From: Euglena gracilis
Taxonomy: Eukaryota
Assembly: GCA_039621445.1 (NCBI GenBank)
Contig: CP154954.1
Span: 24,936,954-25,000,953 of the forward strand
DNA: 64,000 bases
Reading direction: 5' to 3'
Positions 9,764 to 47,178 of the stretch are shown here, piece after piece. A program made the position numbers and the translations under genes. Every line of letters begins with the position of its first letter. Within the stretch, counting starts at the first letter, position 1. The notes beneath the pieces were generated by a model. It did no database searches. It was not told the origin of the DNA and worked only from the letters and a program-made list of their open reading frames with translations.

Positions 9764-10579
9764 CTCCACTTTGGGACCAGTTTTGGTCACGGGATTCTGG
9801 ACAGGGGGGGGGATTCCAAAGGTTTTCTTGGTCCTTTTTCTTCCTCGACAGAACCCAAAATACGGTGGGGGAAAAGGGAAGTTCGCCCAAACGCAACCGT
9901 TCTCTCACGGACGGATTTCCCCGTGGGCGTTAGCAGTCGGCGGCTAGGATGTCCTTGTAGGTGCTGACCATCCAGGCCACCGCTCATGGACAATGAAGCA
10001 GAGCGGTTTTCGCAGGTTTTCGAAAGATACCCAATGCTAACTGGAGTGCTAGGCGATGGTCAACATGTTCCATCTGGGTTCCAAGCGCTTGGGAAGGGCG
10101 ACAATTTAGCCAGGCCCCTGGTAGCAAAGGCCGTAATCTTTCACATAAGTAATTTTCATGAAATTTCACGGCTTTTGTAAGTAATTTCGTGGACCATGAA
10201 AAGTTCGTTTTTCATTGACTATTAATATTGCCGTCAATTTGGAAAATACGTTTCATTTCAGAAATTTTCCAGAAATATTTCGGAAATTTTTCGAAAAATG
10301 AAATATATTGCCTTCATTTTGCAACCATGAAGGATACACCAGGACCTTGCCATGGTTTTCCTATTCAAGTAGGTTGACGGGAAGGGTCCATATTTCAATC
10401 TTTCAACGAGGGGGAAAATACATTTCTGAAATTTCATGAAATATCCCAAGTAAAGCATTTCAATATTTTTTTCGCCGCGATGCTAACTCCAGTGGTGGCT
10501 CGGGCTCCCACTGCTCAACCCCAACGAGAGGAGCACTTGTGCCCAACGTACAGCCTGCTTGGATGCATGGGGAGACCAT

Positions 10580-13500
10580 GGAGGCTCGGCGCGCTGCTCG
10601 GGGGGGGGGTCCGAGACCCCCTCCCCCCCCCCCCCGCGCGGCCCCTGCGCGGCCGCCCGCTCGCCCCCCCCTCGACCCCCCCCTCCCCCACTGTGCCTAG
10701 CATAGCCAAGAAAAACGCATTTTTTTGAGCAAAACGGTCCAAAAATGGCCAAAAATGACCACTTTTTTGGACCCGAAAATGGGCCGCGCGCCGCCTGCGC
10801 GGCCGCCCTCGGACCCCCCTCCCCCCTCCCCCCCCCCCCCGTGCGGCCTCTCCACCGGGACCCCAACGGCGCCCAGCCTCACCGATTTCGGCGGAGAGGT
10901 GGCAACATGTAGGCATGGCTAACCGGGCAAACCTGGGATGAGGTGGCCCCCCCACCTTTTATCAACTGAGCACCGCTGACCCCCCCCCGCCACACAACCC
11001 TCCCCCCAACGCACGGCTATCGGTGCCCGATCGCCCCTAACGCCCCCCCCCCACTGCGCCACGTGGCCCTGACAGCAACCCCGACCGCCCACACCCATTC
11101 CAGGGGTCTCGTAGGTTTTTCCCTCATGTTCTCGGAGAACCTACCAGGCCTCCTTGGACTTCTCCCCCCCCCCTCCACTCCGCCCCACCAGTGGTGGGGG
11201 GGCCGCTTCTACACTAGCTCTTCCACCACTCGGCCCGGAGACCCCGGCCCGGCCTCCGACCTCGTGCACCTCCCCGCACAGTGGGATTCTATGTGCCATC
11301 GGGCACCTTCGCACACTCGGGGGGGCCTCCCCAGGAAACCTTGAACAGCCACCAGCCCCCCACCCCCGGAAACTAGTCTTACTATATATTTTTTTCCTCC
11401 CTCCCCCCCCCCCCACAGAGTGCAACGGGCAAGGGCCGCCACACCCCCTCCACCCACCCGCGCCTCAGCTTCACAGTGCTGCTCAGTAAGCCTTTTCCCC
11501 TCTCATCGCCCTACCCCCCAACGCCCCAGCAGGCACGCTCTACCAAAACCGAGCGCCAATTGAACACCAATCACACACTCAGAACCCGACCCGACTTCCC
11601 CGGAGCGGGCCGTCATCCCCCGCCCGGGGCCCAAAATGGACTCCCACGGCCCTAAGGGGAAGCAATCGCCCCTGGGGGCCCCCAGCCCTGCTCGAGAGCC
11701 TCCACGAGCTCATCGTGATCCTCCCACCCGGAACGCATGCCGGGTGGTCACACAGCAAAAACCCTCCCTCCCCATGTGGCCGGCCATCGCCCACGGGGCA
11801 CAACGTACTTAGGTCACACACGGGGGGCTCTTTTTCCGGTGTTACATGTTCTCGGCGGGCAAGCGACACCGGACCGTGAAGTTCCCGGCCGGCAAGCGTA
11901 CCCCGACAAGACTGTGCCAGGCTCGGGGCCGCCCGACACAGTCCTGTGGGCTTGGTATACGCCCCTCAGTCCCCCCACCCCCATCACCTCTGCCACCGAA
12001 GGACAGAGACAACACCTCAAGCATTCCCAGGTTGCTTTCCCCGCTTTCTGGCCCAGTCACACTGGGCAACACTTGACGTGCAAGGGACCGAGGCGTACTA
12101 GGTCGTGCTTCGCCAACTGAGACTGACTCACTTGACTGCCCTAGCCACTCCTGAACCATCAAGCTGACATAGGCATACCCCGAAAGGAGCGCCCCCCCCC
12201 CAAATATCTTTTTCTCAACCCAGCACACAAGACCGAAGGGACCCCCCGAAAAAAAAGCAAAGCAAAACAAAACAAAAGACTACACATGACCTTCGCCTCG
12301 GCAAGTTTCATTGGAGCCACCGCGAAACTCGTCAGGGAGGGACACCCAGACACAGCACGTCACCACATCGTGCGCACCCCCCCCGTCCGGAGGCCTCACC
12401 GGACGGCACCCGCGCTAACCCAATACACCTGGCTGCCCTGTGCTGCCCCAACATTCAAAGACCAGCCCCATCCGTTACCTGGCCTTTGCTTGCCCGAGCC
12501 ACCCAAACATCCCCCACCTGCAATCACAGTTACCTGCGGTTAATTCTTACATGGAGAACCCCCTCGAAGGCACACCAAGGTTGCCCCCCCCAGCTAGCGC
12601 ACAGTCACCACTACCCCCAACCTCAGGCTCCCCTGTTTTTATTTCTTTATTCATTTACGCGATAACCACCCGCAAGTCCCCCCTCCCGATTTTTCACAGC
12701 CTAGCACCATTCAGGCACTGTGCCCATTAACACCCCCCCCCCTCAAAACAGCATCACCTCAGCCCCGAACCCACACGACCCCCCCCCGTGCACCTGCTGC
12801 GAAAATCCAGGGACGGGCCACAGCACGCGGACCCCCCCCAACAGACACCCCCCTGTGTGGTTGCCTCGCCCACGCCGGGAGGCAGCGCCGGCATCCGCTC
12901 CACCGTCCAAGCCCGGCCCCAACCCCAGCTTCTGTACGGGCCTGAGCCTGCGGCGGTCCATCCCCCCCCCTCCTGGAACCGATCGCACGCGCCCCCCCCC
13001 CAATCACCCAGACACGGCACGTCCGCACCTTGCGCGCTACCCCTTCCCCCCCCCCCGTCCGGAGGCCCCGCCCCTGCATTCAGAGACAAGCCCCAACCTG
13101 TTACCTGGCCTTTGCTTGCTCCGACCCCGAATGACCCAGACACCCCTCGGAGGCACACCAATTTTTTTTTCCTTTTTCAATACTCATTTCAAAACGCGAT
13201 AACCAGCCGCAAGTCTTCCCTTGAGAGTGCCGGGCCACACCCCTGGCATCATCATACAGTACCACCAACCAGGCTGACCAGGGTGACACCAGCCCTCTGA
13301 GAAAAAACCCCCACCCTAGCACCAGGCTGCCTCCCCCCATCTTTTCACGGCCTTGCACCGCCCAGGCACTGTGCCCATTAACGCCCCCCACCCCCCCCCC
13401 TCAAATCAGCATCACCCCAGCCCCGAACCCACACGATCCCCCGTGCGCACTTGCTGCAGAAACCCAGGGACGGGCGCCTCACAGCACGCGGACCCCCCCA

Positions 13501-16086
13501 CCCTGTGTGGGTATTTGGCTCACGCCGGGCGGTAGCGCGATAACCCCAAACCACCTTGTGTTTCTCACCCACCAAAATCCTTCCACCCCACAATGTTTTT
13601 ACCTCAAACTTCGGGGTACCCAATATATTCCGCCCTGTGGTGTGCCCATGGTGTTTCTTCCACGAACTTCCGGACACCCTCATCCCTGGTTCCAGACCCA
13701 TCAAACTTCTGGACTACACCAATTTACCCACTAAACCACCCCGTGGTGTGGACCCCCCCAATGATGTCTTACTCACCGATTTTTGTTTCACCACCAACCA
13801 ACCCGGTGTCCTATGCAACAAACTTCTGAACAGCCCAACCCCCCCCCCCTGTGCTGTTCTTCACACCGACTGCCCGGACCCCCCATACGCTCCGGATAAC
13901 CACAACCAACCGAACTTTCCGATAACCCAACCCCCACGGTGTTCTTTCCGATTCCCGAATAAACCTGATAGCCCCTTGGTGTAGAACTTTGTCCCACGGA
14001 TAACCCCCTTGCCCAGATGGTGTCTTACCCACCGAGTTCCCGGACCACTCCGAATACCCTGTGATATTCAACCCGCTGTATTTCAGGCTTGCCTCAACCT
14101 CTCCTTTGTTTTGCACCACCCACCGAACTTCGGTATAACCCCAGCCACCCTGTGGAGCCTAACCTGTCGAGATTCCGGATAATCCTGACCAACCCATGGT
14201 GTTCGATCCGATGAAACCTGGGACCCCCCCCCGTGGCCTTCCACACATATCACTTCTGGAAATTCCATGCACCAAACTTCTGCATAACCGTGAACCCCCC
14301 CCCTGGAGTCTCTCCCACCCCACTACCAAACTCCTGGATAACCCCACAACCATGGTGTACTGCATACCAACCATGTCTTTAAAATCAGCTGCCGGACCAT
14401 CCCAACCTACCCACCATCTCTCCGGACGTCACAATCACCCTGTGGTGCTTTACCCCATATATTTCCGGGTGACCCATCAATTTTCTCAGTTACTCAGCCC
14501 GCCATGGTGTGCTACCCTTCCAACTCCCGCGTAAACCCACCTATCGAGCTTCCACATAACCCTAATCACCCCGTGCCCTCAGAGCTTCCGGACCACCTCA
14601 AACACCCCATGCATCCAACTTACTGCATTTCCAGGCCTCCCTCAACCACCCCGTGGTGTTGTAACCACCGAACCTCGGAATAACCACAACCACCTGGCAG
14701 TGTCCAACCCACCGAACTTCCACCTGCCAAACTTCCGGACAATTTAACCCCCTCCCCGGAGTGTTCTACTTGCCGACTGCCTGACCTCCCACCCCAGTGT
14801 TCCGCCCCCAACTTCTGGAACATCCTAACCACCCCATGGCCTCCCACCCACCGAATTTGTAGATTACCGCAACCACCCCGTGTTTGGCTCTGCTCTTCAA
14901 AATTTTGGATAATCGCTATCACGCGCCCATTTCCGGCCCTTTGCCCGTCCATGAAATCGAAAAATTTTCGCCCCCCCCCCCAGGGGTACGGCGACCACCC
15001 AGCTGGTTTTTTTTTTCTGCATCACTTCTGCGTTCCGCACCCTCTACCCTGATCGACCCTTGAGAGGAGGGCCCAATCCGGTGGGAACATCACATCATTC
15101 CGGCCTCTGCCCCCCAGCAGGCACGCCCTCATCTCCCCATCATATCATACCGGCCTCTGCCCCCCAGCGGGCACGCCCTCATCCCCCCATCATACCATCA
15201 CGGCCGCTGCCCCCCCCCCCAGCGGGCACGCCCCCATCCCGGCCTCTGCCCCTCAGCGGGCACGCCTCATCCCCCCATCATATCATCTTGCCCTCTGCCC
15301 CCCAGCGGGCCCGCCCTCATCCCCCATCACATCATCCCGGCCCCTGCCCCCCAGCGGGCACGCCCCTTGCCCCGGGCCAGCGTCCCTTCCATCCCCTGCC
15401 TGCCGACCTCATCGTACGAAGTTCACCAACAACTCACCCTCTCGTTGTTCGTCGCCATCCTTCCCCTCCCTGCCGTTCCCCGCAGCGAGATCATCGTACG
15501 AAGTACTTCGCCTCTGCCCCAGGACACCTCGCCTATCGCCCATCATCAACCCTGCTGTTCCACGCGGCCTTCATTTCCGCAGACGACCACTTCCCTCGTC
15601 GCCCTGGCCCTGTTCCCTGCTCTTCGCGCTCGGCGGGACCATCGTACGATGTTCGCGACTGGCCCTTTCCCAACACCCACCCCTTCCACCACCCGCCACA
15701 TAGCCAGAACCCTCGGCACTTGCCTGGGGATTTTTATTTTTCCGCCGCCACCACCATCCGCCCACGTTTTTTTTTCCCTCTCCCCCACCCCGTTGGTACT
15801 ATTATGGTATTTTCTAGTTTTCGCAACTCACTCTATTAACCCCCTGGACACCAAACCCCACACACCCCCACGGGCGAACCCCCAACCAAATCCCAAAATC
15901 CCAAATCAAATCTTAATGCCCGGGCTCCGGGGGTGCCCTCCTGAGTGGTGCTTGTGTACGCCCACGGCTGGAGGCACCGCGCAGCAATGCGGGGCACAAC
16001 AAATCCAAATCCAAATCCCCCCGTGCGGCCGCCCGCGCGGCCGCTCGCCCCCCCCTCCTCACCCCCCCCCACTGTGCCTAGCCTCC
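10580..16086. mobile_element. 5.5-kb GGAGGC-TIR element, TSD cat, reverse orientation, C-rich interior
   Basis: cat|GGAGGCTCGG...CCTAGCCTCC|cat; removal restores GDH-AVT in the CRE1 frame. Internal duplication ~12340-12900 vs ~13005-13535; tandem repeats ~15095-15370. Confidence 0.8.
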
Positions 16087-31835: not shown

Positions 31836-34491
31836 AGGCCAGTCAAGGTGGCTCCTATGCCTTTTTTGGGGGGGTATTAACCCCTTCTTTTACGGTAAGG
31901 TTTGCTTTTGGATTGCCTGGCAAAAGCGTTGGACATTCTGGTGCAACTGGTTTATATTCACGCCAACTCATGGTTTTTTTCATTTGCGAGCGGTAACACC
32001 CCCTTCATTTACGGTAATGTTTGCCTTTGACGTGCCTGGCAACAACGTTGGAGAACCTGGTGCAAGAGGTTTTTATTCGCTTTAACTCCAGAGCTCTCCC
32101 CCCTGCTTTCCGTTTGTCGTTCTGAAGGTGTTTGTAAACACCTTCCAGTGGGATTTCCACTTTCAATGACAGTCGCCCAAAGACATGGTTTCGCATTTCC
32201 TTTTCTGCTTCCCCAAAAAAAGGAGGAAAAAAAAACATGTAGAACCACTGGAATGGAAAATGCAGAACCCATGTGGCCGCCCCCCCTCAAATAAAATACA
32301 CAAGTCCCAAGCCCTTCTTCAAACCTTAAAGGAAAAAGAAAAACCCTCCTGTGACCGAGAGAAAACACAAATCTTCGTTCCGTGCAATAGGGCCGACGAA
32401 GGAAATTCGTCTTCCATACTGAGGACGAATGAAATTTTTGAAAAAATGCGTGAAATTTTCAACGGCCGGCCATAAATTTCACGATGGAAAATTTTCACGA
32501 GCGAATTGAATGCCCAGTCTTGAAAGGGGGGGTTTCCCGTCGTGGGGTGGGGGTCGACCATGGTCGCCCTTCAAAAGGGGGGGGTTTCCCGTCGTGGGGT
32601 GGGGGTCGACCATGGTCGCCCTTCAAAAGGGGGAGGTTTCCCGTCGTGGGGTGGGGGTCGACCATGGTCGCCCCCCTTCCGGGGGGGGTTTCCCGTCGTG
32701 GGGTGGGGGTCGACCATGGTCGCCCCCCTACTGGGGGGGTTTCCCGTCATGGGGTGGGGGTCGACCATGGTCACCCTCGGTCGACCCCCAGGGTCGCCTC
32801 TGTCGACCCTCCCCACTACCCCCCCCCCCCCGACCGAGAGCGACCGAGGCGACCGTGGGTCGACCATGGTCGACCCCCACTACCCCCCCCCCCAGTCCAG
32901 ATCCGGGAGCCGGGCGGCTGGGTCCAGCAGGCTGGGGTAAAATGGGGCCGGACGTTTTGGCCAGAAGATTTTGAAATATGAGGGGGGGATGGGTCCAGAA
33001 GGTTGGGGCAAAATGGGGCCAGAAGTTTTGGAAATGTCTGGGGGGCTTGGTCCAGCAGGCTGGGGCACAATGGGGTCAGAAGTTTTTGAAATATGAGGGG
33101 GGGATGGGTCCATCAAGCCGGGGAAAAATGGGGCCAGCAGTTTTTGGAAATGTCTGGGCCGCTGGGTCCAGCAGGCTGGGTCAAAATGGGCCAGAAGTTT
33201 TGGAAATGTCTGGGGCCGGGTCCAGCAGGCTGAGGCAAAATGGGGCCACACATTTTGGAAATGTCTGGGGGGCTGGGTCCAGCAGTTTGAGGCACCCCCA
33301 TCAGATTGGAATGAATGGGGACCAGTTTTGGGGACTTGCAATCAAAATTGCAACAAGACTTCCAGACTGAGTGTAAAGCAAAAACAAAAGAAAAAGCAAC
33401 AGAGAGAGAGAGAGAAAGTTGCACTTAATAATGGTGCTTTGTGGGCCTTTTCAGGCCACAGGTTGTCCATGGACTGCAGGGCCTTTTCAGGCCACCGCAT
33501 GGATTGCAGGGCCTTTTCAGGCCACTGTGTAGACCAAATGTCAAAGTGACCAAGTAGCACGTGCTGCTGAAAAGTTGATAAACCAAGGAATACTTGTGGC
33601 GTGGAGATTGCTCAGTGCAAATTTGAGTCTTGGGTCGCAACTGCCAGTGAAAAAAACGAAAGAAATCAGCCAGACCAGGCCTACGTCAGAGTCAATTAGG
33701 AATTTCGGGAGGTTATTTGTCTGGTTCGCTAAGACCAAGTGTGAGGCTATTCTTAATTTTAAAAGTTTTCCCACGAGGCCCAAGAGGGACGAGGGCACGT
33801 TCTGGGTGAAGCTGTGATATCCCTTCACCAAAAATCGTTTCATTCTGCTTCGAACAAGAGCATCAATGTGTCTGGTGCGGAATTATTTTTTTGCATCTGC
33901 GTCGTCATTGGAACCTTTTTGGCCCATTTTTTCTTCTTCGAGAAGTTGAAACATTCATGGAAGACAATTGTCTGTTGACACCCCATTTGGGGGGGGTGGC
34001 GTTCAATGTGTGTTGTCCTCCATGGGGCCAAAATTTGGTCACTTTTTCAATAAAAAATATGAAAAGAGTCACTTTTTTTTGGCAGCTTTTTGGGTCGGGA
34101 TGGAGTTTTTTTAAAGTTTTTTTAAAGTTGGAAAAATCAGCACAATTGTTTTTGGGCCATTTTGGGCGTCAAAGAATTTTTCCCCTCAAACGGCGTGCCT
34201 GGTCCCCACACCCATGTTGATCCAAAATTATTGGCACAAAGTTTCAGAATTTTTGAGTAATGTGAAAACCCCAGCCCCCCCCCCCAGGGGATGGGGTTCA
34301 GGAGGGGATGGGGTTCAGGGGGTGCTGACTCAAAACGTGTCGGAAATTTTCAGTTCCAGTCGGTTTCACCTGACTCAACCTGACCCAAAAACCTTCAAGT
34401 TTTTTTTGGCCAAGAACCCCCCCCCCCCGCTTCCATTCAAGGATGTTGTTTCCTTCACTGAATTTGGACACCATTCGCCGGAAAGGATGGC

Positions 34492-34508
34492 TGTCTTTTT
34501 TTTTCTAG
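34492..34508 (+). promoter_or_regulatory. Polypyrimidine tract + AG; candidate spliced-leader trans-splice acceptor
   Basis: gtc(t)9ctag ends 5 nt upstream of ATG 34514. Confidence 0.55.
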
Positions 34509-34513
34509 GTGAG

Positions 34514-34883
34514 ATGGCTTTCACCGCAAAGCGTGAGCATCACCCAGCATTGCCCCTATACCTTTTGACTGATGCTCTTCTCTTCCTTGCCATCCTCCTT
34601 GGATTCATCGCACTGTTTGTGCCTTGGGCTCAAAAAGACGTCGCTGTTGGTTATCGTGCTTTTTCGTACCCATTCAAGACGTGCTATGTGCCAACAACCA
34701 GTCCAGTGCATCAAGAAACTTGCATGGACAATGACTTTATTGCTGGCCCAAAGGGAGCTCCTGTGACAGCTGGTGACGCCACTTGCAAGACATTCATCAT
34801 CACGGCTATCGCCCTGGGATTTTGCGGAGTGTTTGGTGGATTTTTAGTTTTCTTGTTTCTGATCTGGGTGATCGTCAGGCTTT
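34514..34883 (+). CDS. Amastin/claudin-like four-TM protein, exon 1
   Basis: MAFTAKREHH..LLFLAILLGFIALFVPW (TM1), Cys-containing loop, TM2 FIITAIALGFCGVFGGFLVFLFLIWVIVRL. Confidence 0.8.
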
Positions 34884-36063
34884 GGGCAGGCTATTCCCTG
34901 CAAGGGACAGGAGCAACTCATTCGGACTGTTCCGTTGGTTCATACTCGGAAGTGCATCAACTCCGTTAGTCAATCGGGTATTTGTTCGCTGCTCGACCCC
35001 CACCCAAAATTTTTCGGTACTTATCTGTTATCGCACGACACCTTATTTTTTGGTTTCGCACGACACCTTGTTTTTAGTTCTATGGGGTTATTTAAGGAGT
35101 AGGGTTAGGTGCGCACAGGCCATGTAGCGCAACATGGCCTGTGCGCACCTAACCCTACTCCTTAAATAACCCAATATTAACCCAAAAAAAAAAGGGCGTC
35201 GTGCGATAACCAAAATAAGGTGTCGTGCGATAACAGATAAGTACCAATTTTTCAAGTCGTCAGGTTATTTGAAGGAGTAGGGTTAGGGCGACATGGCCAT
35301 GCTCGACGCCCCTTCGACGCCTCACCCGGGTCCCCCATGTTTTTAGCTCCAGTTGGGCGGCTCTTTGGGTTCGCTGGAGACACCAATCTAACAACGTTGA
35401 GCGGGAAATGTTCTGCTGTTTGCATAAGAATTGTAACCCCAACCCTGCTCCTTCAAAGAACGGCAGAAAATCTTTTTGGCCACGGGAAAACACCATCAGC
35501 AAACTTTGTTGCCTTTGGTTGGACTGGCGGGGATGCCCCCCCCCCGCACCATATATACTGTAATAGCCCTTCTTTATGTTTGGCAAGGGTCTGGATGTTT
35601 CTGAATTGGAAAACTACAGAAGTCGTTTCAATCGACCACATGGTCGGCCTGACCACCATTTGGGGGGTGTTACCCCCACGTCCCCCCCCCCGCGTCCCAC
35701 CCCCGTCCTTTTGGTCGACCAAAGGAAAATTTGGGTGACGCCAAAGAAAACGTGCGGGGGTGGTTGGGCCACGGTTCCCCCCCCGGGTCCCATAACTGAT
35801 GCCCCCCTTCTGAAGCAGCCAAAACGGGCAGGCACATTGAGCAATTTTGAAAATTTTAAAAGTTCCTGAGAAAGCCAATCCCCTGAACGTCCAAGTGCAA
35901 TGAAATTTGGAAGGTGAAATAGGGCTCCAATTCCACGTCCATACAAAGTTTGGCCAGTTTTGGACATGGGGGGTCATTATGGGGGGTATAAATTGACAGG
36001 GCGCCGAGCAATGCACGCGTTGCCTTCTTGCTGCTTCTTTCCTTTTGTGAGTTGCCTGGTGCT
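34884..36063 (+). other. Nonconventional intron 1 (1180 nt)
   Basis: ggg-CAG...CTG-gtgct|g; CAGGC/GCCTG and GCAACTCA/TGAGTTGC pairing; in-frame join RLW-YRPIK. Confidence 0.75.
35016..35245. mobile_element. Almost fully palindromic MITE with GGTAC termini (Merlin-like)
   Basis: Exact 8-bp TSD aatttttc; arms of ~113 nt with a few-nt loop. Confidence 0.8.
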
Positions 36064-36284
36064 GGTATCGCCCCATCAAATCTGCCATTGGTGCACAGAT
36101 CTGCATCATTCTTGCTTGCATCTGCTGTGCATTGTGTTGGATACTTTTCATCTGCTATGCCGAACGCACGTGCCGACCCTACACAATCTTCCCTGTGAAG
36201 GGTTATTCTTATGGGTTCATCCTCTTTATATTTGCAACAGCGCTGTCCCTCGCCTCGGTTGTGACAGGTTTCATGGCCTTGATG
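36064..36284 (+). CDS. Amastin/claudin-like protein, exon 2
   Basis: YRPIKSAIGAQICIILACICCALCWILFICY (TM3)..GYSYGFILFIFATALSLASVVTGFMALM (TM4). Confidence 0.8.
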
Positions 36285-37074
36285 GATCAGGGGCTGGAGC
36301 ACCGCCTTAAGATTGCAAGCTAACCCCCCCCCCAAATAACCTGGCGGGGTGCCAGGTTATTGGAACCAACTTTTGTCCCTGCCCCCCCCCCCCGAGCATC
36401 AAAAAGGAATTTTGCCTGGAACCATATTTTTTGCCCTTCCCCCCGCCAAGTTATTCGGCCCCTGCCACGAGCAAGGACCCCGCCAGGTTATTTGGGGATA
36501 ATTTTTTGCCAGTGTTTCTGAATTTTTATTTGTTGGCCCAAGCATGCAGTCACTAAAAAATCATTGGCAGGTGGCCGATGATCCCCCTCATAGGAACAAG
36601 AACATGGGGGGACAGGCTGCTTCCTTTTTTTTAATTTACCGCGGAGTACCCAAGGTGGTTCCAGGCAAGACATCCAAAGGCCTTTTTAAAAAACTCAGAA
36701 GCCCCTCCCCCCCGAGAAGGATGGGTGGGCAGGCTTGGGAACTGCCCCTCGGGGGGGGGGACCCAGGGTGCCAGACCCTTTTGCCGGAGTGTCATGGCTA
36801 AACTTATGTATGTTTGCCCCAAGCCCAAATATTTTTGCCACCCGTCCCTGGTATTTTTGCCACCCCATCTAAATATTTTCGCCCCCCGTGTACACCTTTC
36901 TGCCCCCTGTTTCATTTTTTTTGCCCCAAAGAGCCACAATGTCCAGTCAAAATGGTTCTGATTCCAGAGCCAGAGGCAGGTTGAAAGGGCATTACAATTT
37001 GCTGAATGTTGAACACCATTTCTGCTGCATATCAGTAGCGATTTTTTTTACTCAAAGCAGCCTGATTTCTATAC

Positions 37075-37178
37075 AAAAACCGACCGACACAAACAGATTC
37101 AGCAGGGACACTGGGCGCGAGCGAGCGAAGCGAGCCGCCCAGCGCCCCTGCTGAATCTGTTAGTGTCGGTCGATTTTT
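37075..37178. repeat. ~100-nt hairpin with GCGAGCGAGCGAAGCGAGC apex
   Basis: aaaaaccgaccgacacaaacagattcagcagggacactgggcg / cgcccagcgcccctgctgaatctgttagtgtcggtcgattttt. Confidence 0.8.
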
Positions 37179-37180
37179 CT

Positions 37181-38014
37181 AAAACCTATTTTGTCTGGGC
37201 CCGACGCCTGTCTTGAAATTCATTCAACCGAACCGCCTGGACGGAAATATGGCCAAAAAAGTGGTTTTTGGCCCATTGACGGGCGCCTGAATGGAAACCG
37301 TTAGACATAAACGGGCGCCTGAATGGAAATCGACCGACATGAACAGGCGCCTGATTGGAAATCGACTGACATAAACGGATTCCGATGTCATGGAAATCGA
37401 CCAACCTTTTGTGTCCTTTTTCTGAATGCTTTTTTGTTCCATTTTGGGACATTGTCAATTTCAGCCTGAAGTCCGTTAATCGACCTTTTTTCTCATTTTT
37501 CTGAATACTTTTTTCTTCCATTTTGACAGAATAGAATAATAACAATAGAAATTCCAACACAGGCGTGGAGCCCAGAAAACAGCCCTATTTTTTCGACATT
37601 TTTGGTCCTGTGGGGTTCTGGAGGCGTTATGAACCATACAAAAAAACAAATTTTGCGACTGATTGCCGGAAATTGGTGATATATTTTTTGGTGGTCGCTA
37701 GCGACTGGTCCCTAACGACCATTAGGGACCATGGTCGCTAGCGACTAGTCGCTGGCGACCATGGCTACTGAAATCCAAAATGTCCAAAAGTCACTAAAAA
37801 TTCCCAATCAGCAACAGATTTCAATGGAATGGAAATCGACCGACATAAACTGGCGCCTGAATGGAAATCGACCGACATAAACGGGCGCCTGAATGGAAAT
37901 TGACCGACATGAACAGGCGCCTGAATGGAAATCGTCTGACATAAACAATTTCAGGCTGAACCGTTAATGTCAGCAGAATTTCAAGACAGGCGTCGGGCCC
38001 AGAAAATAGGTTTT
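37181..38014. mobile_element. TIR element (~38-bp TIR) with 36-bp subterminal repeats
   Basis: aaaacctattttgtctgggcccgacgcctgtcttgaaattc / gaatttcaagacaggcgtcgggcccagaaaataggtttt; ggcgcctgaatggaaatcgaccgacataaac units. Confidence 0.75.
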
Positions 38015-38143
38015 AACTGGTTTTCGCTTTTGGGTGGGAAAAAAACCGAGATGCTTGCAGTGCTGTGAAAACTTCTCATTGCACTCCTGTGGCCTTATTT
38101 TGTTTCAGATTTCCAGATCAGATTTCATTACATTTGTTTCAAC

Positions 38144-38705
38144 GGCTCATTGCGGGAAATTGGCCGTGGAACTTTTGGTGGTCGCTAGCGACCGGTCACT
38201 AGCCATGGTCGCTAGCGACCGTTGGTCACGGTCAACCTCCCATTGGTGGTCGGAGCGACCGGTCGCTAGCGACCACCAAAATTTCGACCCCCCCCTCCTC
38301 CAGAAAATTCGGGCCAGGAGGGGGGTGGGACCCCCCCCCACCTAAACAGTGGCGCGGTCTGGGTGACTGGGCCGGGCCGAAAATTTTTGACCCCCAAAAC
38401 GACCAAAAGTGCCTTTTTGGGCACTTTTTGGGGAAAAAGGTGCCAAAAATGCAAAAATTTTCGGCGCGAAGCACAAAGGAAAAAATTGACCCTTTCAGGG
38501 GGGGGGGGTCCGGACCACCCCCCCACCTGTCCTTATATCGAACCCTGGCCCCCCCCATTGGGATGTAATACAAAACCCCCCCTGTTGTACTGCAAAACGA
38601 TGCTACCAGGGCCAAGCGCGCATGTGATGCCACGCGCACCATAAACAAAACCGTCCCAAGGCGTCTTCGGCGCCCTTGGTCGTCTAGCGGGGGGGGGGGG
38701 GGGGG

Positions 38706-38740
<35 letters not shown>

Positions 38741-39270
38741 CCTCCAATAACAAAATCCCCTCTGGGGGGGGTAACCGACCCAGGGCAGGTGCGCATGTAC
38801 CCTCACCCCCCCCTCCGGGGGGCAAATTTTTGGGCTTTGGCGCCAAACGAAAGGGGCCACTTTGAGGGGGGGTAAAGCAAATTTGACAAAAAAATTTGGC
38901 CACTCTGAGGGGGCGGGGGTGAGGGTAATGCCACCCCCCCCCCCTGCTGCCGCCCCCCCGTACCCCCCCCGCCTTCCAATGACAAAGTAATGTAAGCATT
39001 GTGTGACATCATGCAAGATCCTAAAAGCAGAAAAAAGGAACTTTTCATATAAAATTTCATGGCTTTCTCTGGGGGAAATTTTTCCTTCACGGGGGGGGGG
39101 GGGCTTAAAAATCTTCTGAGAGGGGGGGGGTCGAATTTTTGGTGGTCGCCAGCGACCGGTCGCTCCGACCACCAACGGTCGCTAGTGACCAGTCGCCAGA
39201 ATTCGGTCGCTAGCGACCATGGTCGCTAGCGACCACCAAAAGTTCCATGGCCAATTTCCCGCTCGGAGCC
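38144..39270. mobile_element. GGCTC...GAGCC element, 9-bp TSD (Mutator-like)
   Basis: TSD tgtttcaac (38135-38143 / 39271-39279); long TIRs containing GGTCGCTAGCGACC palindromes. Confidence 0.8.
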
Positions 39271-40187
39271 TGTTTCAACAACCCCACCTTTTATTGAAGC
39301 GGAAATGCCATTACTACAAAAGCCGATGGACCTTAAAATTTGTCCCATTCCAACCTTTCCCAAATGAGTTGCATTCAAGCCCTTTTGGGCTGTTTTCTCA
39401 AATGCACTTGGCGGTCAATGGACAATAAAACTGCACAACCAACATGTGGTGTTGGGAAAAGTCAAAGGAGTTCTTGGACTTTTCCAAATGCCAAATTCTG
39501 GTTGTGGATGATTTTGAGTTCCTCTCTGTCTGAGGAGAGAGTTCTCATGGGTGATTCCGACTTCTTTTGAAGTCATTGGTTTTGAGGCAGTGGGAAAGGG
39601 GGGGCTTCCCCTTCTTATGAATCCGCTTATGACTTAGTTCACATATTTGTGCATTTTTTGTGCGAATAAGTAGTTTGTGTGCTTTACAGAGTGCATGTGT
39701 CTGTATTATTGTTCCTGCACGTGCTGACAATTCGAAACTTGCTGCAGAGAAATTCTTACAAAATTGAAATTTATAATTGCCAAAGGGCCCAAATATTTTG
39801 GGTTCTAGTGGTGCGTTGGTGCATGTGTTGTACATTTAAGGTTCCACATCCTTTCCCATGCACGTTAGATGCCTTTGCAGCACCAGTGCCTAAAACGTGG
39901 ACACATTTCCAAGTGCCAAGGGTCCTGGGAGTCCCGGGAGTTGTAATTGCCAGATGTGACGAAAAAAAAAACGAGGATTAGGGGCAAAGTTAACCAGGTC
40001 AAGGTACGAAAATTTGTAGCAGGGCCGGGGGGGTGAAAGGTTCCTGGCCTGGGGGCAGAAATTAGTAAGGTTAGCCATAAATGAGGAGGGGGGCTGGTCC
40101 CGGACCCCCTCTCTTGGAAAAAACCTGACGCCAGAATTTTTTTTTGCTGGGGTCGGTGAGGAATTGTGTGGTCCAGAGTCTGTTGCC

Positions 40188-40352
40188 AAGCTGAAGAATT
40201 ATCAGCTGCTCTCCCTGGATGAACAAGAGAAGGATATTGATATGGACGTCCAGGCACCCCAAATGGACATTGTTTACCCAGAGTATTCTCCTCAGGGCGC
40301 TGTTCCAACACCTGTTGTCCAGTACCCCACCTACACCCCTGTTATTGACTAG
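40188..40352 (+). CDS. Amastin/claudin-like protein, exon 3 (acidic, Pro/Tyr-rich tail)
   Basis: KLKNYQLLSLDEQEKDIDMDVQAPQMDIVYPEYSPQGAVPTPVVQYPTYTPVID*; total CDS 756 nt. Confidence 0.72.
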   Translation, partial: KLKNYQLLSLDEQEKDIDMDVQAPQMDIVYPEYSPQGAVPTPVVQYPTYTPVID

Positions 40353-41025
40353 TATGTGTGCTTTTTCATTGTGTTGAAGCGGGTGTTTCTCTGGGGTGGC
40401 TGAAAGATCAGAAGGCAAATTCCTGGGTCCCCTCAAAAATAACCCTGGGGGGGGGGTCCCGGGCCAGTGTGGGTTTTGGCGCGAAGCGCTGAAAAATCTT
40501 TGGGAAATGGCCTCAGACGGCTGATTTGGGGGGGACCCCGGGGGGGGGGGGGTCCCACGCCGGGCTGGGGTGGGTTTGACCCTCCCCCGGTTCTTAAAGC
40601 CCGGGTCTTGAAGCCTGCAGGGGGGGGGGACTGCAGGTCCCCCCGCCCCCTCCCCATTTCTCTTTCGCCATTCCTGTGTGTCAATATCTCAACGCGATGA
40701 AGTCCTGATTTTTTGGCAGACTATTTTTCAATATTCAATGCAACAGTCAATTTTACACAACGGTTTACAATACGAATGAATCCAATCCTACTGCAGCTCA
40801 ATTGGCAAGGCGTCCGTTTTCTGAAACAAATGTTTTGGAACTGTTTGTTTTCATTGGTCTGATTTTTTTTGGCAGTTGTGTTCAACTGTTCAATCAGAAA
40901 ATGTTTCACCTTAATTTGCAACCCATTTGTAATGTGCTTGATGATTCTTCCTAATTGTTTTCAATGGTGCGTTGTGTTTTGGGGAGGGGACAAAATTTGG
41001 TCAAATAAGTGGGCCCAGCAAATGT

Positions 41026-41190
41026 GGAATCCTAAGTTTTGGTTACCTTAGCCTCCGGGGAGCCTCCGCGGAAGCCTCTGTGGAGGCTGGTTACCTTGGA
41101 GCCTCCGCGGAGGCTGGTAACCTTGGAGCGTCCGCGGAGGCTCCTCGGAGGTAACCACTGTTGTACAACCACTGTTGTACACAGGCCATG
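41026..41190. repeat. GGTTACC / AGCCTCCGCGGAGGCT minisatellite element
   Basis: Palindromic ~27-bp units; relatives at 42587-42843 and split around the DIRS element. Confidence 0.75.
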
Positions 41191-41499
41191 TCTGAAAATA
41201 GGAAAAATATTTTTACAGGTTGACGCCAATCTCCCTCCACACCCCTTCCTCCTGTTCCCCACACTACTGCCCAGAGGAAGAGGAATTTTATTTTAATTTT
41301 TTCTCCCCCATCTCCACAAAAAAAACATTTTCCCCCATTTTTGCTGTGAATCCCCCAAAAATTTAAATTTTTTTACACTCCAACACTGCCCACATCGCCA
41401 CAAAGAACGAAGCTTTTCGCCCTCTCACACGCACCCATCCCCTCCATTTTCCACAAAAAGCGATTTCCATTGATGTGGTACAGACCGTTCACCCATTTT

Positions 41500-41725
41500 G
41501 CCGTTTACGCCATGTCCGCCAAACTTGTTGAAAACCATTCATCCATTTGATACAAAAACACCATGTCCGCCTGATTTTGCTTTTACCGTTTACCGATTTG
41601 CTATTGACGCCATGTCCGCCAAACTTGTTGAAAACCATTATCCATTTGCTACAAAAACGCCATGTCCGCCTGATTTTGCTTTTACTGTTTACCCGTTTGC
41701 TATTGACGTCATGTCCGCCAAACTT
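41500..41725. repeat. ~120-bp tandem duplication built from cgccatgtccgcc subunits
   Basis: Seen directly. Confidence 0.75.
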
Positions 41726-42211
41726 TGTCCACACAAAAGGATGTTGTCATTGGGGAGCGGGGGAGGGGGGGAGAGGGGAAGGGGGTGGGGGAGGGGGGCG
41801 GGGGGGGGTGGGGGCGGCGGCCCCCTCCCCCCTGGGCACAGCCAAATGGACACCACTTTGGGTTTCACCTGACCTTTTTTGCAACATCACATCCATGCTG
41901 ACGTGCAGTTTGCTACCATCACCCTTTCCAAGTGACTGTTGGTTCACCTGGTTGAAAACATTTCAGTGCAATCCAGGATTAAAAGTTGTGGCAAATCCCA
42001 GTGGGATCACAATCTCAGGTACAATTTTGGCCTCTGGATAATTTAGGTATTATTCTGGCTGAATAAATTCATTTTCGGTTTTGTTTAAGCTCAATGTTGC
42101 CTCCCAAAGTCCGTGAATTTCTTTAGTCTGGGAATTAGTCCGTGAAGTAGTCCGTGAATGATTTTCCCCTCTGTGCAAATGGGCAGCAGATGATCTGCCA
42201 CTGAGTGCCGT

Positions 42212-42487
42212 CAGGGATTTTTTTAAGTTTGGACCCCCGGGGGGGGGAGGGGGGGTAGGGTGGGTGGGTCCGCCGGACCCCCGCCCCCCCCCCCGGGGGG
42301 GGGGGTCCCCCCGGAGGGGGGTGGGATATACTTTTCGGCGCCGCAGGCGCCGAAAAAATTCTATTTTTAGCACTTTTCGCGATTTTTTGGCCATTTTTTG
42401 TGGGTCCCCCGGGCCCCCCTCCCCCCCCAGGGGGGGGGGTGGGTGGGGGGGGACCCCCCCTCCCCCCCGGTCTTAAAAAAACCCCTG
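42212..42487. mobile_element. CAGGG...CCCTG MITE
   Basis: TSD agtgccgt / agtgcagt (7/8). Confidence 0.8.
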
Positions 42488-42586
42488 AGTGCAGTCACCG
42501 TGTTTGACATTGAAGAATGTTTCTCTTTATAATACAAAAAAACAAACAAACAAACAAAAAAATTCCTGTTCAGTTGTATGTTCCCA

Positions 42587-42843
42587 ACATGCTCCTGCAA
42601 AATTGGTTACCTTGGCCTCCGAGGAGCCTCCTCGGAGCCTCTGCGGAGGCTGGTTACCTTGGAGCCTCCGCGGAGGCTGGTTACCTTGGAGCCTCCGCGG
42701 AGGCTGGTCACCTTAGCCTCCGCAGAGGCTGGTTACCTTAGCCTCCGAGGAGCCTCCACAGAGGCTGGTTACCTTGAGCCTCCGCGGAGGCTCCGCGGTG
42801 CCTCCCCGGAGCCTCTCGGAGGCAACCAAAAAGTTAGGATTCC
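42587..42843. repeat. GGTTACC / AGCCTCCGCGGAGGCT minisatellite element, second copy
   Basis: Same units; terminal motifs appear swapped relative to 41026-41190. Confidence 0.75.
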
Positions 42844-42855
42844 ACTTTTGCGGCA

Positions 42856-42918
42856 GACCGTTCAAACCCAGGTTTTCCGCGTGACGGACAGAAGCTCTAT
42901 CCACTGAGCCACGGTCAC
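42856..42918 (-). pseudogene. tRNA-Asp(GTC)-like pseudogene
   Basis: GTGACCG TG GCTC AGTGGATA GAGC T TCTGT CC-GTC-AC GCGGA ... CTGGGTTTGAA; 3' side of T-stem missing. Confidence 0.6.
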
Positions 42919-43321
42919 CTGCTTCTTCCACGTTTCTACTGAAATTTCTCTAACATAATTCTAAACGCCGTGACAAATTGGTCACCTGAGGCTCCGGGAA
43001 TTTCCCCAGAGGCTGGTGACCCTTCCTGGAGCATCCCGGAGCCTCTATCCAGGTAACCTCCTTCGGCAGGATTCCATTTTTGCGGCAGGCCCGGGTTATC
43101 CAGCCATTCCTCTCATTGTGATTAAACCCCCCAAATAACACCCCCCCCCCGGTGTGTTATTTGGGCACCCGAACTGGGGGTCCAAGGAGGGGTGTGTTAT
43201 TTGGGGGGGGTATTTTTACAGGGAAACCCAAAGGAAAACAGGGGGGGGGGTGTTATTTGTGCGCTCGAAATCGGCCCTCGAGGGGGGGGGTGTTATTTGG
43301 GGGGGTTTAGTCCCCCCAAGG

Positions 43322-43774
43322 CAGGGGGGGGGAAATGCGTTTCGCATTTTTTCGCATTTTTGCGCATTTTTTGTGCATTTTTTCAAATTTTCCAAAAATG
43401 CGCATTTTTGCGCATTTTTTCGCATTTTTTGCGCATTTTTTCGTTTTTTTCAGCGCATTTTTTTGCTTTTTGGCACATTTTTTTGTGATTTTCCAAAATT
43501 TTCGCATTTTTTGGCCATTTTTGCAATTTTTTTGCAAAAATTTGAAATTTTCGACTTTTTTTGAAATTTACATTTTCCTCATTATTCTACATAATTTCTT
43601 CAAATTTGGTGCCATTTTTGCATGTTTTTGGGTAATTTTTGCATTTTCGTGATTTTTGCGCATTTTTTCTCGGATTTTGCACATTTTTGCGCATTTTTTC
43701 CAAAAATGCGCATTTTTTGCGCATTTTTGCGCATTTTTTCCGAGGCCGGGCGAGCGCATTTCCCCCCCCCCCTG
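43322..43774. mobile_element. CAG(G)n MITE, reverse copy of 22724-23194
   Basis: Flanks share ccaagg. Confidence 0.8.
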
Positions 43775-44625
43775 CCAAGGGAAATTATCGCCATTGAACG
43801 AACTCAGCATTGATCAAAGCCTGGAAACTACATTTAAATATCAAACCTGTCATTCAATGGCTTCATTTTATTCTCAGATGGAGAAGATGGGAGCATTCAC
43901 TGGTTGTTTTATGGGCAACAGCGACGATTCGAACCGGATGCTTCTGCGAAATTCACGTTGCATTGGACAGGCATTATGCCATTCTTTTTGCGAAGTGAGT
44001 TCCTGCTGTCCAAATCTGCAATGACGTGTCTCTCACAGACAACAAACAAACAAACACAACCAGCCACAAGAGATTTCTGTTTCATTTCTTTCTTCTGCTT
44101 CTTTTTTAAAAGTGGAATGTGCCACCCGACTTTCCCAGGTTTTGAGAAAAGGAGGGAGTCACGGCTTTGGATGAGGGGTTCGGACGATACCAGTGCGTCC
44201 GACCCTGGGTGATTGACTGGTGTTTTTTGTGGTCACTCTGCTGGTAGGTGGGGGTTGACCCCCACCTGGGTGATGGGTCAACCTCCTCCCCCACACAGCT
44301 TTCCCAACAGCCCTGTCCTGGGGGAAGGACAGAAAGGAAGGGGCGAAAGTGGTGAACCGGTGCCAAAGGCGCTGGGATTTTCTTTGGGACAGATTCATCT
44401 AACACCCATGACCCCCCCCACCGGGGGTGGGTGGGCTTTTGAGAGTGGGGGGGTTTCGGGTTTCTTTTTAGGTCAGAAGACCCGGGGGGGGGGGAGGGGT
44501 CCCTGGCCACTCACCACGCAGCAAACTGGGCCAGAAGCGAAGTTAGCGCCGGCCATAAACAGACAAGAAGCCTTAGTGCAACTAAGGGGGGGGGAGGGGT
44601 CCGGGTCCGGGCCAGAGGTCCAAGT

Positions 44626-45106
44626 CAGGGAATTTCTTAAGCCGGAGGGTACCCTACCCCCGGGGGGGGGGGTCCAGCCAGCCAGCAGCTCAAATCCAGC
44701 CAGCAGCCCAAATTCGGGCTGGGAGCCCCCCCCCCCGGGGTCGAGTGAAATAAAGTCGGGTCCAGCCCGGCCGGAGGCCGGGCCAGCCGGCCGCAGGCCG
44801 GCCAGCCAACTGGGCTGTCCAGCTCACTTATCCCTGCATTTTTCCCCCTCATCACAGCCCCTCCATCACAGCCCCCCAGCCTTGATCTATCTCCACCCAT
44901 CAAAATGTCGAAAATGGCCAAAATGTGTTAGAAAATTTTGTTTTTCGTCGACCCAGCCCAGCCCAGCCCGCTCCAGCCCGGGACCCCCCCCTCCCCCCCC
45001 CACCCCCCCGGGGGGGGGGCCAGCCAGCAGCTCAAATCCAGCCAGCAGCCTTTTTGCCAGCCGGAGGCTGGACCCCCCCCCCGGGGGGTCCTTAAGAAAT
45101 TCCCTG
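44626..45106. mobile_element. CAGGGAATTTCTTAAG MITE
   Basis: 16-bp perfect TIR; exact TSD gtccaagt. Confidence 0.9.
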
Positions 45107-45260
45107 GTCCAAGTATGGTTTTTGGCGCAAAGCGCCGAAAATTTTCTGGGGAAGTGCCCAAATGGAGGGGGGTCCTCCATGAGAAACCTGGGACCAGGGT
45201 TCGATATATGGTTCCCCCCCCCCCCCCCCTCCTGGACTGGAATGGGGTTCCCCCCACCTG

Positions 45261-47178
45261 CAGGGAATTTCTTAAAGACCCCCCCGGGAGGGTCCAGCCT
45301 ATCCATCAAAATGTCGAGAAGGCAAAAATGGTTCAGAAAATTTTGGTTTTCATCGACCCAGCCCAGCCCCCCCCCCCCAGCCCCGGACCGCGTTTCCAGC
45401 CAGCAGCCTTTTTGCCAGCCGGTGGAGCTGGATCAAGGCTGGGGGGCTGTGATGGAGGAAGCTGTGATGAGGGGAAGAAATGCAGGGATAGGTGAGCTGG
45501 GCAGCCCAGTTGGCTCGCCAGCCTGCAGCCGGCTGGCCCGGCCTCCGAGTAAAATCAAGTTGGGTCCAGCCCGGCCTCCGGCTGGGCTGGACCAGGCATT
45601 ATTTTTTTTTAAGGCGAGATTTCTCAAAAAATTTTAAGGCGTTTTTTAAGGTTTTTTAAGGTTTTTTAAGGTTTTTTAAGGCATTTTTTTCCGTCACTTT
45701 CTGATGACAAAAAATTATTTTATAACTTTTTCCTCATAAAATGGCCATTAAACTCCCTCAAACCCCCATTTTTCACACCTTCTGAAAAATCAACATTTTC
45801 TCAAAGTTTTGAATTTGAGAGTTTTTGAAGCAAAAAAAATGCCATTGAAAATCCAACAAATTTGACAGAGGAAAAGTGTCAGTAAAATTTGATTGTGCCA
45901 AAATTTGGTCCACCTTTTTTGACCTTCGTTATTTTCCACCCCCCCCTCCAAATTTAACCCTGAAATCTTTGAGTTTTTTTGTCAAAATCAACATTTCTCA
46001 AAATTTTAATTTTGAGAGATTTTGGAAGCAAAAAAATGCCACTGAAAATCCAAAAAATTTCCAAGGGAAAAAATGTCAGTAAAATTTGACTGTTCCAAAA
46101 TTTGGTCCCATTTTTTTGACCTGCATTTTTTGACCCCCTCCTAAAAACCAACAATTTTCATCCCTAAATTTTTTGAGATTTTTTTTGGGAAAATGTGATT
46201 TTCCATCAAAAAACCAACCATGCATTTTGGGTTCATTTTTCAACGTAATTTTCAAAAAATTTTCCCCTGCCAAAATCCCTTTTTCCTTAATTTTTGGTTG
46301 AAGTGTTTGGGGACAGGATTTTTTTTTGCCTAAGGACCGCCCTGGCACGGGTTGCCGCATTGCAGGTCTGCAAATCCGCGATTGCGGTTCGGATATCCAC
46401 TGTGTCATTTTGCCACTGTTGTTGCAAATTCTCAATCCTACTTTGCGATATTCGAGATTTTGGGGTGAAAGCATGCAAATTCAGCAGGAATTTCTCCACA
46501 ATGGCAAGGTTTCTGATCCAAACGAGAAAGTCTTTCTTCCAACTGCTGCACATAAGTGCGGGGACCAAAACTTTCGCGCGCTTGGGCAAAAAAGTGGGAA
46601 AAATCCACTTTTGAGCAATTTGGGTTGACTCCTCTAAGAATGTCTCAAGTAATTCAAATCAAGAAAGATGTGGTTGCAAGTTTTGCTTATTCTGGCCGTG
46701 TGTCACAGCTTTTGGTGAACCGAGGCCAACCGAACTATGCCAGAAACCTTGGCAAACAATCCGGTTTTCATATTGTTTGTTCACAACCGCTTCTGCATTG
46801 ACAGGCTTTATGCGGGGTTTCAGACATGCCATTCTTTGTTTGGTACAAGAAAAAAATTCCCAGGAAAAAATTTTAAGGTTTTTTAAGGTCATCACGGGGA
46901 AGAAAAACTTCCCCGGGGTGATTTTTTTAAGGTTTTTTAAGGTTTTTTAAGGTTTTTTAAGGCATTTTGGCAAAAAAAAATTTAAGGTTTTTTAAGGTTT
47001 TTTAAGGCGCCTTAAAAATAATAATAATGCCTGGGCTGGACCCAATTTTATTTCACTCGACCCCCGGGGGGGCTCCCAGTCGGAGTTTGGGCTGCTGGCT
47101 GGATTTGAGCTGCTGGCTGGCTGGACCCCCCCCCCCCTCCGGGGGGATAGGGTACCCTCCGGCTTAAGAAATTCCCTG
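45261..47178. mobile_element. CAGGGAATTTCTTAA element (1.9 kb) with TTTTTTAAGG repeats
   Basis: 15-bp TIR; exact TSD cccacctg. Confidence 0.88.

Follow-up and report, generated by a model that had tools for sequence, protein, structure and literature searches.

In the 64,000-nucleotide stretch of Euglena gracilis DNA analysed here (NCBI GenBank assembly GCA_039621445.1, contig CP154954.1, positions 24,936,954 to 25,000,953 of the forward strand; in the following termed the window, with position 1 as its first letter), a split gene extends on the + strand from position 34509 to at least 44134 (Table 1). The locus very probably represents a real, well-transcribed nuclear gene of a Euglena-type euglenid which encodes a claudin-fold four-helix membrane protein related to IP39, and the gene model itself, consisting of a spliced-leader acceptor, four exons, two nonconventional introns and one conventional intron, is held with high confidence on the basis of directly observed RNA reads. 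The coding pieces 34514-34883, 36064-36284 and 40188-40352 add up to 756 nt and form a single open frame of 251 codons plus a stop, whose translation has four hydrophobic segments; a product of 251 residues with four transmembrane (TM) segments had already been proposed in a first-pass annotation that was made from the letters of the DNA. In a stop-to-stop list of open reading frames (ORFs) the gene appears as three separate, unconnected frames, and with respect to such a list it had rightly been described as hidden. The term does not extend to the transcript, since the spliced RNA is present in public RNA runs from several studies.

Transcript data were taken from the public raw RNA-Seq run X21, sampled at about 5%, and from assembled contigs of X1, X3 and X9, which together represent four separate studies and were aligned to positions 34000-41000. 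The first joint is aligned from 34882 to 36063 with three ambiguous bases, a range that includes 34883/36064, and is carried by 328 X21 raw reads (121 + 207) and by one contig each from X1, X3 and X9. The second joint, from 36284 to 40188, has no ambiguity and is carried by 539 raw reads (247 + 292) and by the same three contigs. Both joints were thus recovered, to the base, where the first-pass annotation had placed them. A minor joint from 34884 to 36064, which skips 1179 bases and is out of frame, occurs in three raw reads compared to the 328 of the main joint and could be due to splicing or to sequencing error. The depth of X21 raw reads is 88-265 in the exon bins, with 88-196 over exon 1 and 185-265 over exon 2, and does not exceed 2.2 in the exon-free intron bins 34936-35871 and 36340-40083. 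An in-frame TAA at 36321-36323, at which termination would have spoken against the proposed joints, is followed by depths of at most 1.2 in the bins covering 36340-36807, which start 19 bases downstream, while positions 36285-36339 are binned together with exon 2; as far as the bins from 36340 onwards tell, use of this stop is negligible. A tblastn search with the spliced product against the window matched only the gene itself, all other hits having E>=0.88, and thus gave no indication of a tandem array within the window.

The borders of introns 1 and 2 are neither GT-AG nor GC-AG, but GG..CT in intron 1 and GA..CC in intron 2. Both introns carry CAG at positions +4 to +6 (34887-34889 and 36288-36290, respectively). 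At the 3' end of intron 1, CTG at 36056-36058 is followed by GTGCT and the purine G at 36064; similarly, in intron 2 CTG at 40180-40182 is followed by TTGCC and the purine A at 40188. The sequence therefore agrees with the earlier statement that neither junction is GT-AG and that both fit a CAG...CTG pattern with a purine next to it. For the nonconventional introns of Euglena, a splicing code N3-CDG-/-CH'G-N5-6/R has been derived from genome-wide data and knock-in mutagenesis, the latter indicating that CAG and CTG are required and that the length of the 3-nt spacer is fixed (PMC12501133). According to the same report, most introns are nonconventional (87,843 of the 101,105 that are not slidable), 69.1% of the nonconventional introns are 'slidable' owing to short direct repeats at their ends, and it is common for one gene to mix both intron types (PMC12501133). 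Introns 1 and 2 fit the code N3-CDG...CH'G-N5-6/R exactly and are textbook members of this known class. Both are removed from the RNA (34884-36063 and 36285-40187) and would be recognised by way of the CAG/CTG end-pairing code, with fixed spacers of 3 and 5 nt and a purine at the start of the following exon. As nonconventional introns have been reported to be removed after spliceosomal introns (PMC6221363), the conventional intron of the gene would probably leave first and the two nonconventional ones later, by analogy with the published genes. Among the joints listed for the RNA data, none runs backwards across the ends of an intron, which for libraries of the poly(A) type speaks neither for nor against excision as a circle by a non-spliceosomal route.

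From the DNA alone, motif and end pairing at these introns do not go beyond what is expected by chance, and the proof is carried by the RNA reads, which is a caveat against any inference drawn solely from the letters. On the + strand of the window the donor half-motif occurs 1076 times (16.8 per kb) and the acceptor half-motif 554 times (8.7 per kb). In the sequence separating the open frames, 10 motif pairs for intron 1 and 12 for intron 2 would preserve the reading frame. The intron ends form duplexes of -21.0 kcal/mol (intron 1) and -20.8 kcal/mol (intron 2), compared to -5.4 kcal/mol for the conventional intron 3. Pairing of a strength of -20.8 or more was obtained for 11% of 2000 random motif pairs, and by duplex energy the true pairs rank fourth of 10 and third of 12. 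Motif specificity and end-pairing energy, considered as predictors of the junctions, failed to single out the true ones. At gathering scores no Rfam match was obtained over 33000-45500, and hence no known snoRNA or other RNA family within the introns.

The gene had been described as consisting of three exons joined only by nonconventional introns. This part of the description was not borne out: 366 raw reads and the contigs from X1, X3 and X9 leave the locus at 40351 and continue with 30 letters that are identical to 43878-43907 and unique in the window. The intervening intron 3 is bordered by GT and AG, with a pyrimidine tract preceding the AG. With this, the number of exons rises to at least four, and introns of both types occur side by side in the gene. 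The depth of X21 in the bin 40318-40551 (36.5 and 35) is about what is expected from the 34 exon bases at the start of this bin. The genomic TAG at 40350-40352 shares its G with the GT donor, while in the mRNA the stop codon is TA/A, and the length of the protein remains 251 amino acids despite the intron. Upon removal of 40352-43877 by the spliceosome the stop would be read as TA/A, and an unspliced copy would end at the same place with TAG. It may be that this arrangement, with the stop rebuilt as TA/A or read as TAG if the intron is retained, is maintained because it makes translation terminate at one and the same residue in either state.

At the 5' end, all of the 127 X21 reads that cover 34505 and 34507 have T and C at these positions in place of the genomic C and A, and the alignments of the X21 molecules begin at 34499. 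Directly before 34509 the mRNA accordingly reads eight T followed by C and G, since 34505 and 34507 are T and C in every one of these reads; the X3 contig adds an A ahead of the T run. The spliced leader of Euglena has the conserved 3' end TATTTTTTTTCG (PMC4778363). The remainder of the leader is clipped from the reads, so that the identification is by its 3' end. The leader is joined at the AG at 34507-34508, leaving a 5' untranslated region (UTR) of 5 nt, and a spliced leader at 34509, as suggested earlier, is indeed what the reads bear there. The corresponding step would be trans-splicing of the leader to this acceptor.

Table 1. Features of the gene and of its introns (positions in the window; TM, transmembrane segment; UTR, untranslated region; MITE, miniature inverted-repeat transposable element).
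Feature	Position	Strand	Length	Description	Evidence
Outron 3' end	34490..34508	+		polypyrimidine run; AG acceptor 34507-34508 for spliced-leader trans-splicing	sequence, X21 reads
Exon 1	34509..34883	+		5-nt 5' UTR 34509-34513; ATG at 34514; codons 1-123 plus one base; N-terminus, TM1, large first outer loop (FVPW, Cys57, Cys70, Cys91), most of TM2	X21 depth, phmmer relatives
Intron 1	34884..36063	+	1180 nt	nonconventional; GGG-CAG...CTG-GTGCT/G; 'slidable' by 3 bases	328 raw reads, 3 contigs
Foldback (MITE-like) element	35016..35245		230 bp	in intron 1; terminal inverted repeats of 34 nt, perfect; resembles a MITE insertion	
Nested palindrome	35081-35176			48-nt arms; inside the element 35016-35245	
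Exon 2	36064..36284	+	221 nt	end of TM2, TM3, second outer loop with GYSYGF, TM4 (to codon 197)	
Intron 2	36285..40187	+	3903 nt	nonconventional; GAT-CAG...CTG-TTGCC/A; junction unambiguous	539 raw reads, 3 contigs
Inverted-repeat elements	36330-36497, 37072-37181, 37191-38006, 38144-39270			in intron 2	
Exon 3	40188..40351	+	164 nt	codons 198-251 plus stop bases TA; predicted cytoplasmic C-terminal tail, acidic stretch, then Tyr/Pro-rich	
Intron 3	40352..43877	+	3526 nt	conventional spliceosomal GT-AG; starts GTATGTGT, ends TTATTCTCAG; within the stop codon	
Exon 4	43878..44134 (minimum end)	+		first base A completes the stop TA/A; remainder 3' UTR	

By hydropathy, the four hydrophobic segments of the 251-residue product span residues 10-41, 89-128, 127-160 and 171-197, in agreement with four TM helices, a short N-terminus and a short inner loop. 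The motif FVPW occupies residues 35-38 (with W38), the long first loop contains Cys57, Cys70 and Cys91, and residues 170-175 form GYSYGF. When exon 1 alone was compared with 1.84 billion representative sequences by phmmer, 21 proteins were found, 11 of them at E<=1e-10, and all but three are 209-296 amino acids long. A word-index protein search with exon 1 gave 1347 candidates, none at E<=1e-10. The spliced product aligns with one of the relatives, P0001, over residues 1-239 at 52% identity (E 1.6e-82), co-linear through exons 2 and 3, and with P0025, its best match in the protein collections, over residues 1-248 at 59.7% identity (E 6.5e-92). The tail peptide YPEYSPQGA encoded by exon 3 is common to the product and P0025, and the two tails are homologous. 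Since relatives that were found with exon 1 align through exons 2 and 3 as well, the joins are supported at the protein level independently of the reads. P0001 corresponds to EG_transcript_8625 and P0035, which is 41.6% identical to the product, to EG_transcript_9777, both from Euglena gracilis. In Pfam searches with the translations of the three exons, exon 1 had no match, and the families returned (DUF4870, Amastin, DUF6223 and Inhibitor_I53) all stayed below threshold, at the level of noise.

Structural modeling of P0001 with AlphaFold2, using an alignment of 18 sequences, resulted in a model with a predicted local distance difference test (pLDDT) score of 85.1 and a predicted template modeling (pTM) score of 0.76. 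The model has helices at 11-35, 89-121, 128-157 and 173-218; loop 1 contains four strands as well as a short helix, and loop 2 a single bridge residue. A Foldseek search with this model gave 48 matches in the PDB at E<=0.001, and among the matches listed all were TARP, GSG1L, GARLH4, claudin or Cav gamma proteins. Similarly, VIA-align gave Z values of 17.3 for a TARP (root-mean-square deviation, rmsd, 2.3 A over 164 residues), 17.2 for a designed claudin fold, 16.8 for human MP20 and 16.0 for claudin-4, all of which exceed the background for helical bundles quoted by the tool. A profile of the family matched the sequence of TARP gamma-2 in the PDB (E 0.0013); the match extends over profile positions 25-227 and covers almost all of the membrane domain. 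Precomputed Pfam flags are present on five more distant relatives, PF13903 on one and PF00822 on four. A profile-profile comparison of two family alignments was discarded, since members were common to both. At the level of the fold, the modeling supports a claudin fold for the family, with a four-helix bundle and a beta-sheet formed from both outer loops, and to this extent the claudin-like assignment made earlier has gained support. On the reading favoured here, the N- and C-termini of the product would both be cytoplasmic, its large first outer loop would contain a beta-sheet as well as the conserved Trp and Cys residues, and GYSYGF precedes TM4.

Within Euglena, the product probably belongs to the family formed by IP39 and IP39-like proteins. 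Among the integral membrane proteins of the Euglena gracilis pellicle, IP39 is the major one (PMC3644091; PMC2116094). It has been described as a protein of the PMP-22/claudin superfamily of 263/264 amino acids with four TM helices and a W-LW-C-C motif (PMC3644091); it occurs in abundance in the plasma membrane of the pellicle, assembles into ordered strands and anchors the membrane skeleton (PMC3644091; PMC2116094). By BLASTP the product matches P0015 at E 2.6e-26 with 29.8% identity over residues 9-248; P0015 and P0041 agree, as compared by eye, with the printed IP39 alpha fragments, and the link between the product and IP39 runs through these two proteins. In addition, EG_transcript_9777, i.e. 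P0035, is labelled 'IP39-like hypothetical protein' in a published supplement (PMC6366073). A cluster look-up of the relatives returned no IP39 name or accession. The dipeptide PF occurs in the product and in most of its subgroup, while the IP39 subgroup retains LW, and by these sequence features the product sits in a sister subgroup to IP39, the subgroup of which the 'IP39-like' P0035 is also a member.

Several points weigh against the interpretation developed so far and have to be set beside it. X1, X3 and X9 are taken to be RNA by guess only, and X21 is unstranded, with first mates on both strands, so that the strand of the transcript is assigned from the leader, the reading frame and the splice motifs. 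For exon 4, the 865-nt contigs run on for 257 letters, which sets its minimum length, and the X9 contig for 431; the exact match was checked over the first 30 letters. The exact protein of 251 amino acids was not recovered from the protein collections searched. The fold was modelled for P0001, the 52%-identical paralogue, and not for the product itself. PF00822 and PF13903 have no match at gathering score in the three exon translations of the window, and among the 21 relatives the best PMP22_Claudin match, that of P0019, reaches 25.3 bits against a cut-off of 26.7. Finally, the W-LW-C-C motif of IP39 is present in part: W38, C57 and C70 are found, and the position of LW before Cys57 is taken by PF.

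The splicing described above would be misassigned if the joined reads stemmed from another place in the genome, be it a processed copy devoid of introns or a close paralogue, and the locus itself were not spliced in this fashion. A second allele or near-identical copy is indeed indicated, as six bases of exon 1 (34567, 34571, 34573, 34771, 34804 and 34846) vary in about a quarter of the RNA reads. The six variants fall into five codons, with four changes being synonymous and one resulting in D20N, and fit a coding sequence under constraint as well as a second allele or a near-identical expressed copy. However, 2284 of the 2693 aligned raw reads are at least 99% alike to the locus, and about three quarters of the reads carry the bases of the window at all six positions. 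The reads also bear the spliced leader, which is a mark of RNA processing, and the junctions land exactly on sites of this very locus that conform to the splicing code. It is therefore extremely improbable that the reads originate elsewhere. Very little probability is likewise left to the original model, according to which three exons end at the TAG 40350-40352 and are separated only by nonconventional introns that represent old, decayed transposon insertions. This model had the protein and both nonconventional junctions right, and the introns do contain foldback elements, yet a GT-AG intron between 40351 and 43878 is spliced out in 366 raw reads and three contigs, and the inverted-repeat elements reside inside the introns and not at their ends. 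The model had further drawn on relics of target-site duplications at the intron ends, with 4 of 8 matching bases in intron 1 and 2 of 8 in intron 2. The counts are correct, but they are at chance level (P(>=4 of 8)=0.11, and 2 of 8 is the chance expectation), and the 3-base ambiguity corresponds to the common 'slidable' state; we thus rejected the reading of the intron ends as relics. As the inverted-repeat elements lie within the introns and not at the borders, they are later passengers which are uninformative with regard to the origin of the introns.

The gene model with four exons and the IP39-related product can also be weighed against the possibility that the product is a true amastin (Pfam PF07344) that corresponds in euglenids to the surface glycoproteins of kinetoplastids, rather than being of the IP39/claudin type; amastin had been among the families named in the first-pass annotation. 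The translation of exon 2 matches the Amastin profile at E 0.027 over positions 105-155 of 157, P0015 matches it at E 9e-4, and in a feature search of a protein atlas a Euglenozoa cluster named 'Amastin-like protein' came first (0.93) and a PF07344 cluster ranked 14 (0.89), both of which are leads only. All of these Amastin scores are, however, below the cut-off of 27.2 bits (14.8 for exon 2 and 19.6 for P0015), and P0015 was the only one of the 21 relatives to match Amastin at E<=1, whereas four of the 21 matched PMP22_Claudin or Claudin_2, likewise below the cut-offs. The absence of an amastin structure from the fold matches carries no weight, as perhaps none has been solved. The word 'amastin' does not occur in the five supplement files of PMC6366073 that were searched. 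Taken together, a true amastin is improbable; among characterised proteins, IP39 is the closest relative. Should the amastins form a branch of one and the same superfamily, both labels might apply. A deep relationship of the amastins to the IP39-like family may exist.

If the product behaves like its IP39 relatives, it would be inserted into the surface (pellicle) membrane with both termini in the cytoplasm, as suggested by analogy with IP39 and by the fold, and would self-associate or co-assemble through its helices to act as an IP39-like scaffold or as an anchor for the membrane skeleton. The Tyr/Pro-rich tail encoded by exon 3 would then be offered to the membrane skeleton or to kinases. 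A specific role as a scaffold or anchor of the surface membrane is put forward tentatively, by analogy. It might further be speculated that the subgroup with PF is a second building block of the pellicle, that the IP39 family is the stock of the amastins, and that the design of the stop codon is kept; we consider it rather unlikely that these three proposals hold jointly. If they do, the 'IP39-like' subgroup of the PF type may co-assemble with IP39 into the intramembrane strands or may line a different domain of the pellicle, and the IP39/IP39-like family would be the free-living euglenozoan stock of the kinetoplastid amastins, linking amastins to the claudin fold.

Some further observations concern the repeats and the surroundings of the gene. 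Many of the inverted-repeat elements of intron 2 are built around GGTCGCTAGCGACC-type palindromes. Contig depth on these elements is up to 3853 in X1 and X9, and since X21 raw reads are near zero there, the contigs probably come from copies elsewhere. Also located in intron 2, at 38679-38753, is a very long homopolymer block consisting of a G run and then a C run, at which reads seem to be cut; similar C/G runs recur in intergenic and intronic DNA. Just downstream of exon 4, a stop-free frame of 474 codons is present on the + strand (44213-45637), which could be due to an exon of the gene that follows, to a repeat or to chance, and a Pfam search on this frame (44213-45634) revealed no family at E<=0.01. 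The 6 kb from 10001 to 16000 differ from the remainder of the window in having a G+C content of 0.59-0.60 and a strongly negative GC skew (-0.24 to -0.42).

Both the intron type and the protein family have been described before and the transcript is present in public RNA data; the locus is an ordinary gene and a new, exactly mapped member of its kind, which leaves the knowledge of the introns and of the protein family unchanged. Reading raw euglenid DNA with the CAG-CTG code recovered a correct coding sequence that no ORF finder would have joined. Such a reading needs RNA to be trusted, as there were 10 and 12 alternative in-frame joins and the conventional intron that splits the stop codon, a small curiosity in itself, was missed. 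The locus adds an exactly mapped paralogue of IP39, which represents the claudin superfamily among protists and builds the surface of the Euglena cell. Combining a leader acceptor with introns of both types, two nonconventional and one conventional, and with foldback elements nested in the introns, the locus could serve as a natural test case for splicing of mixed intron types.

In comparison to the nonconventional introns described for Euglena (PMC12501133; PMC3935182; PMC11170887), introns 1 and 2 have the same borders other than GT/AG, the same 3-nt spacer followed by CAG, the same CTG followed by a 5-nt spacer and the same purine; their ends can be paired as well, at energies also reached by 11% of random motif pairs, and a conventional intron resides in the same gene. 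There is no difference in kind. With 1180 and 3903 nt they are long compared to the group means of about 520-540 nt, and remain within the reported maxima of 4682-5931 nt (PMC11170887). With TARP and claudin-type proteins the family has the architecture in common, as the P0001 model aligns at Z values of 16-17.3 and an rmsd of 2.2-3.0 A over 160-175 residues. In contrast, identity is 8-16% and the Pfam thresholds are not reached, and the host is unicellular, without cell junctions or AMPA receptors, which is why only the architecture, and not the function, carries over. The product resembles the kinetoplastid amastins in its euglenozoan tetraspan surface architecture, in the weak sub-threshold matches over TM3-TM4 and in the clusters to which the atlas search leads, and differs from them in staying below the gathering score in every sequence tested. 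The closest likeness is to IP39. Identity to the IP39 subgroup is about 30%, LW is replaced by PF, and strands, abundance and skeleton binding are known for IP39 only. Nevertheless, the two proteins are alike in size (251 compared to 263/264 amino acids), in their four TM helices, in a large first outer loop with a conserved Trp and two Cys residues, in FVPW after TM1 and GYS[YW]G[FW] before TM4, and in a Tyr/Pro-rich C-terminal tail that is predicted to be cytoplasmic in the product.

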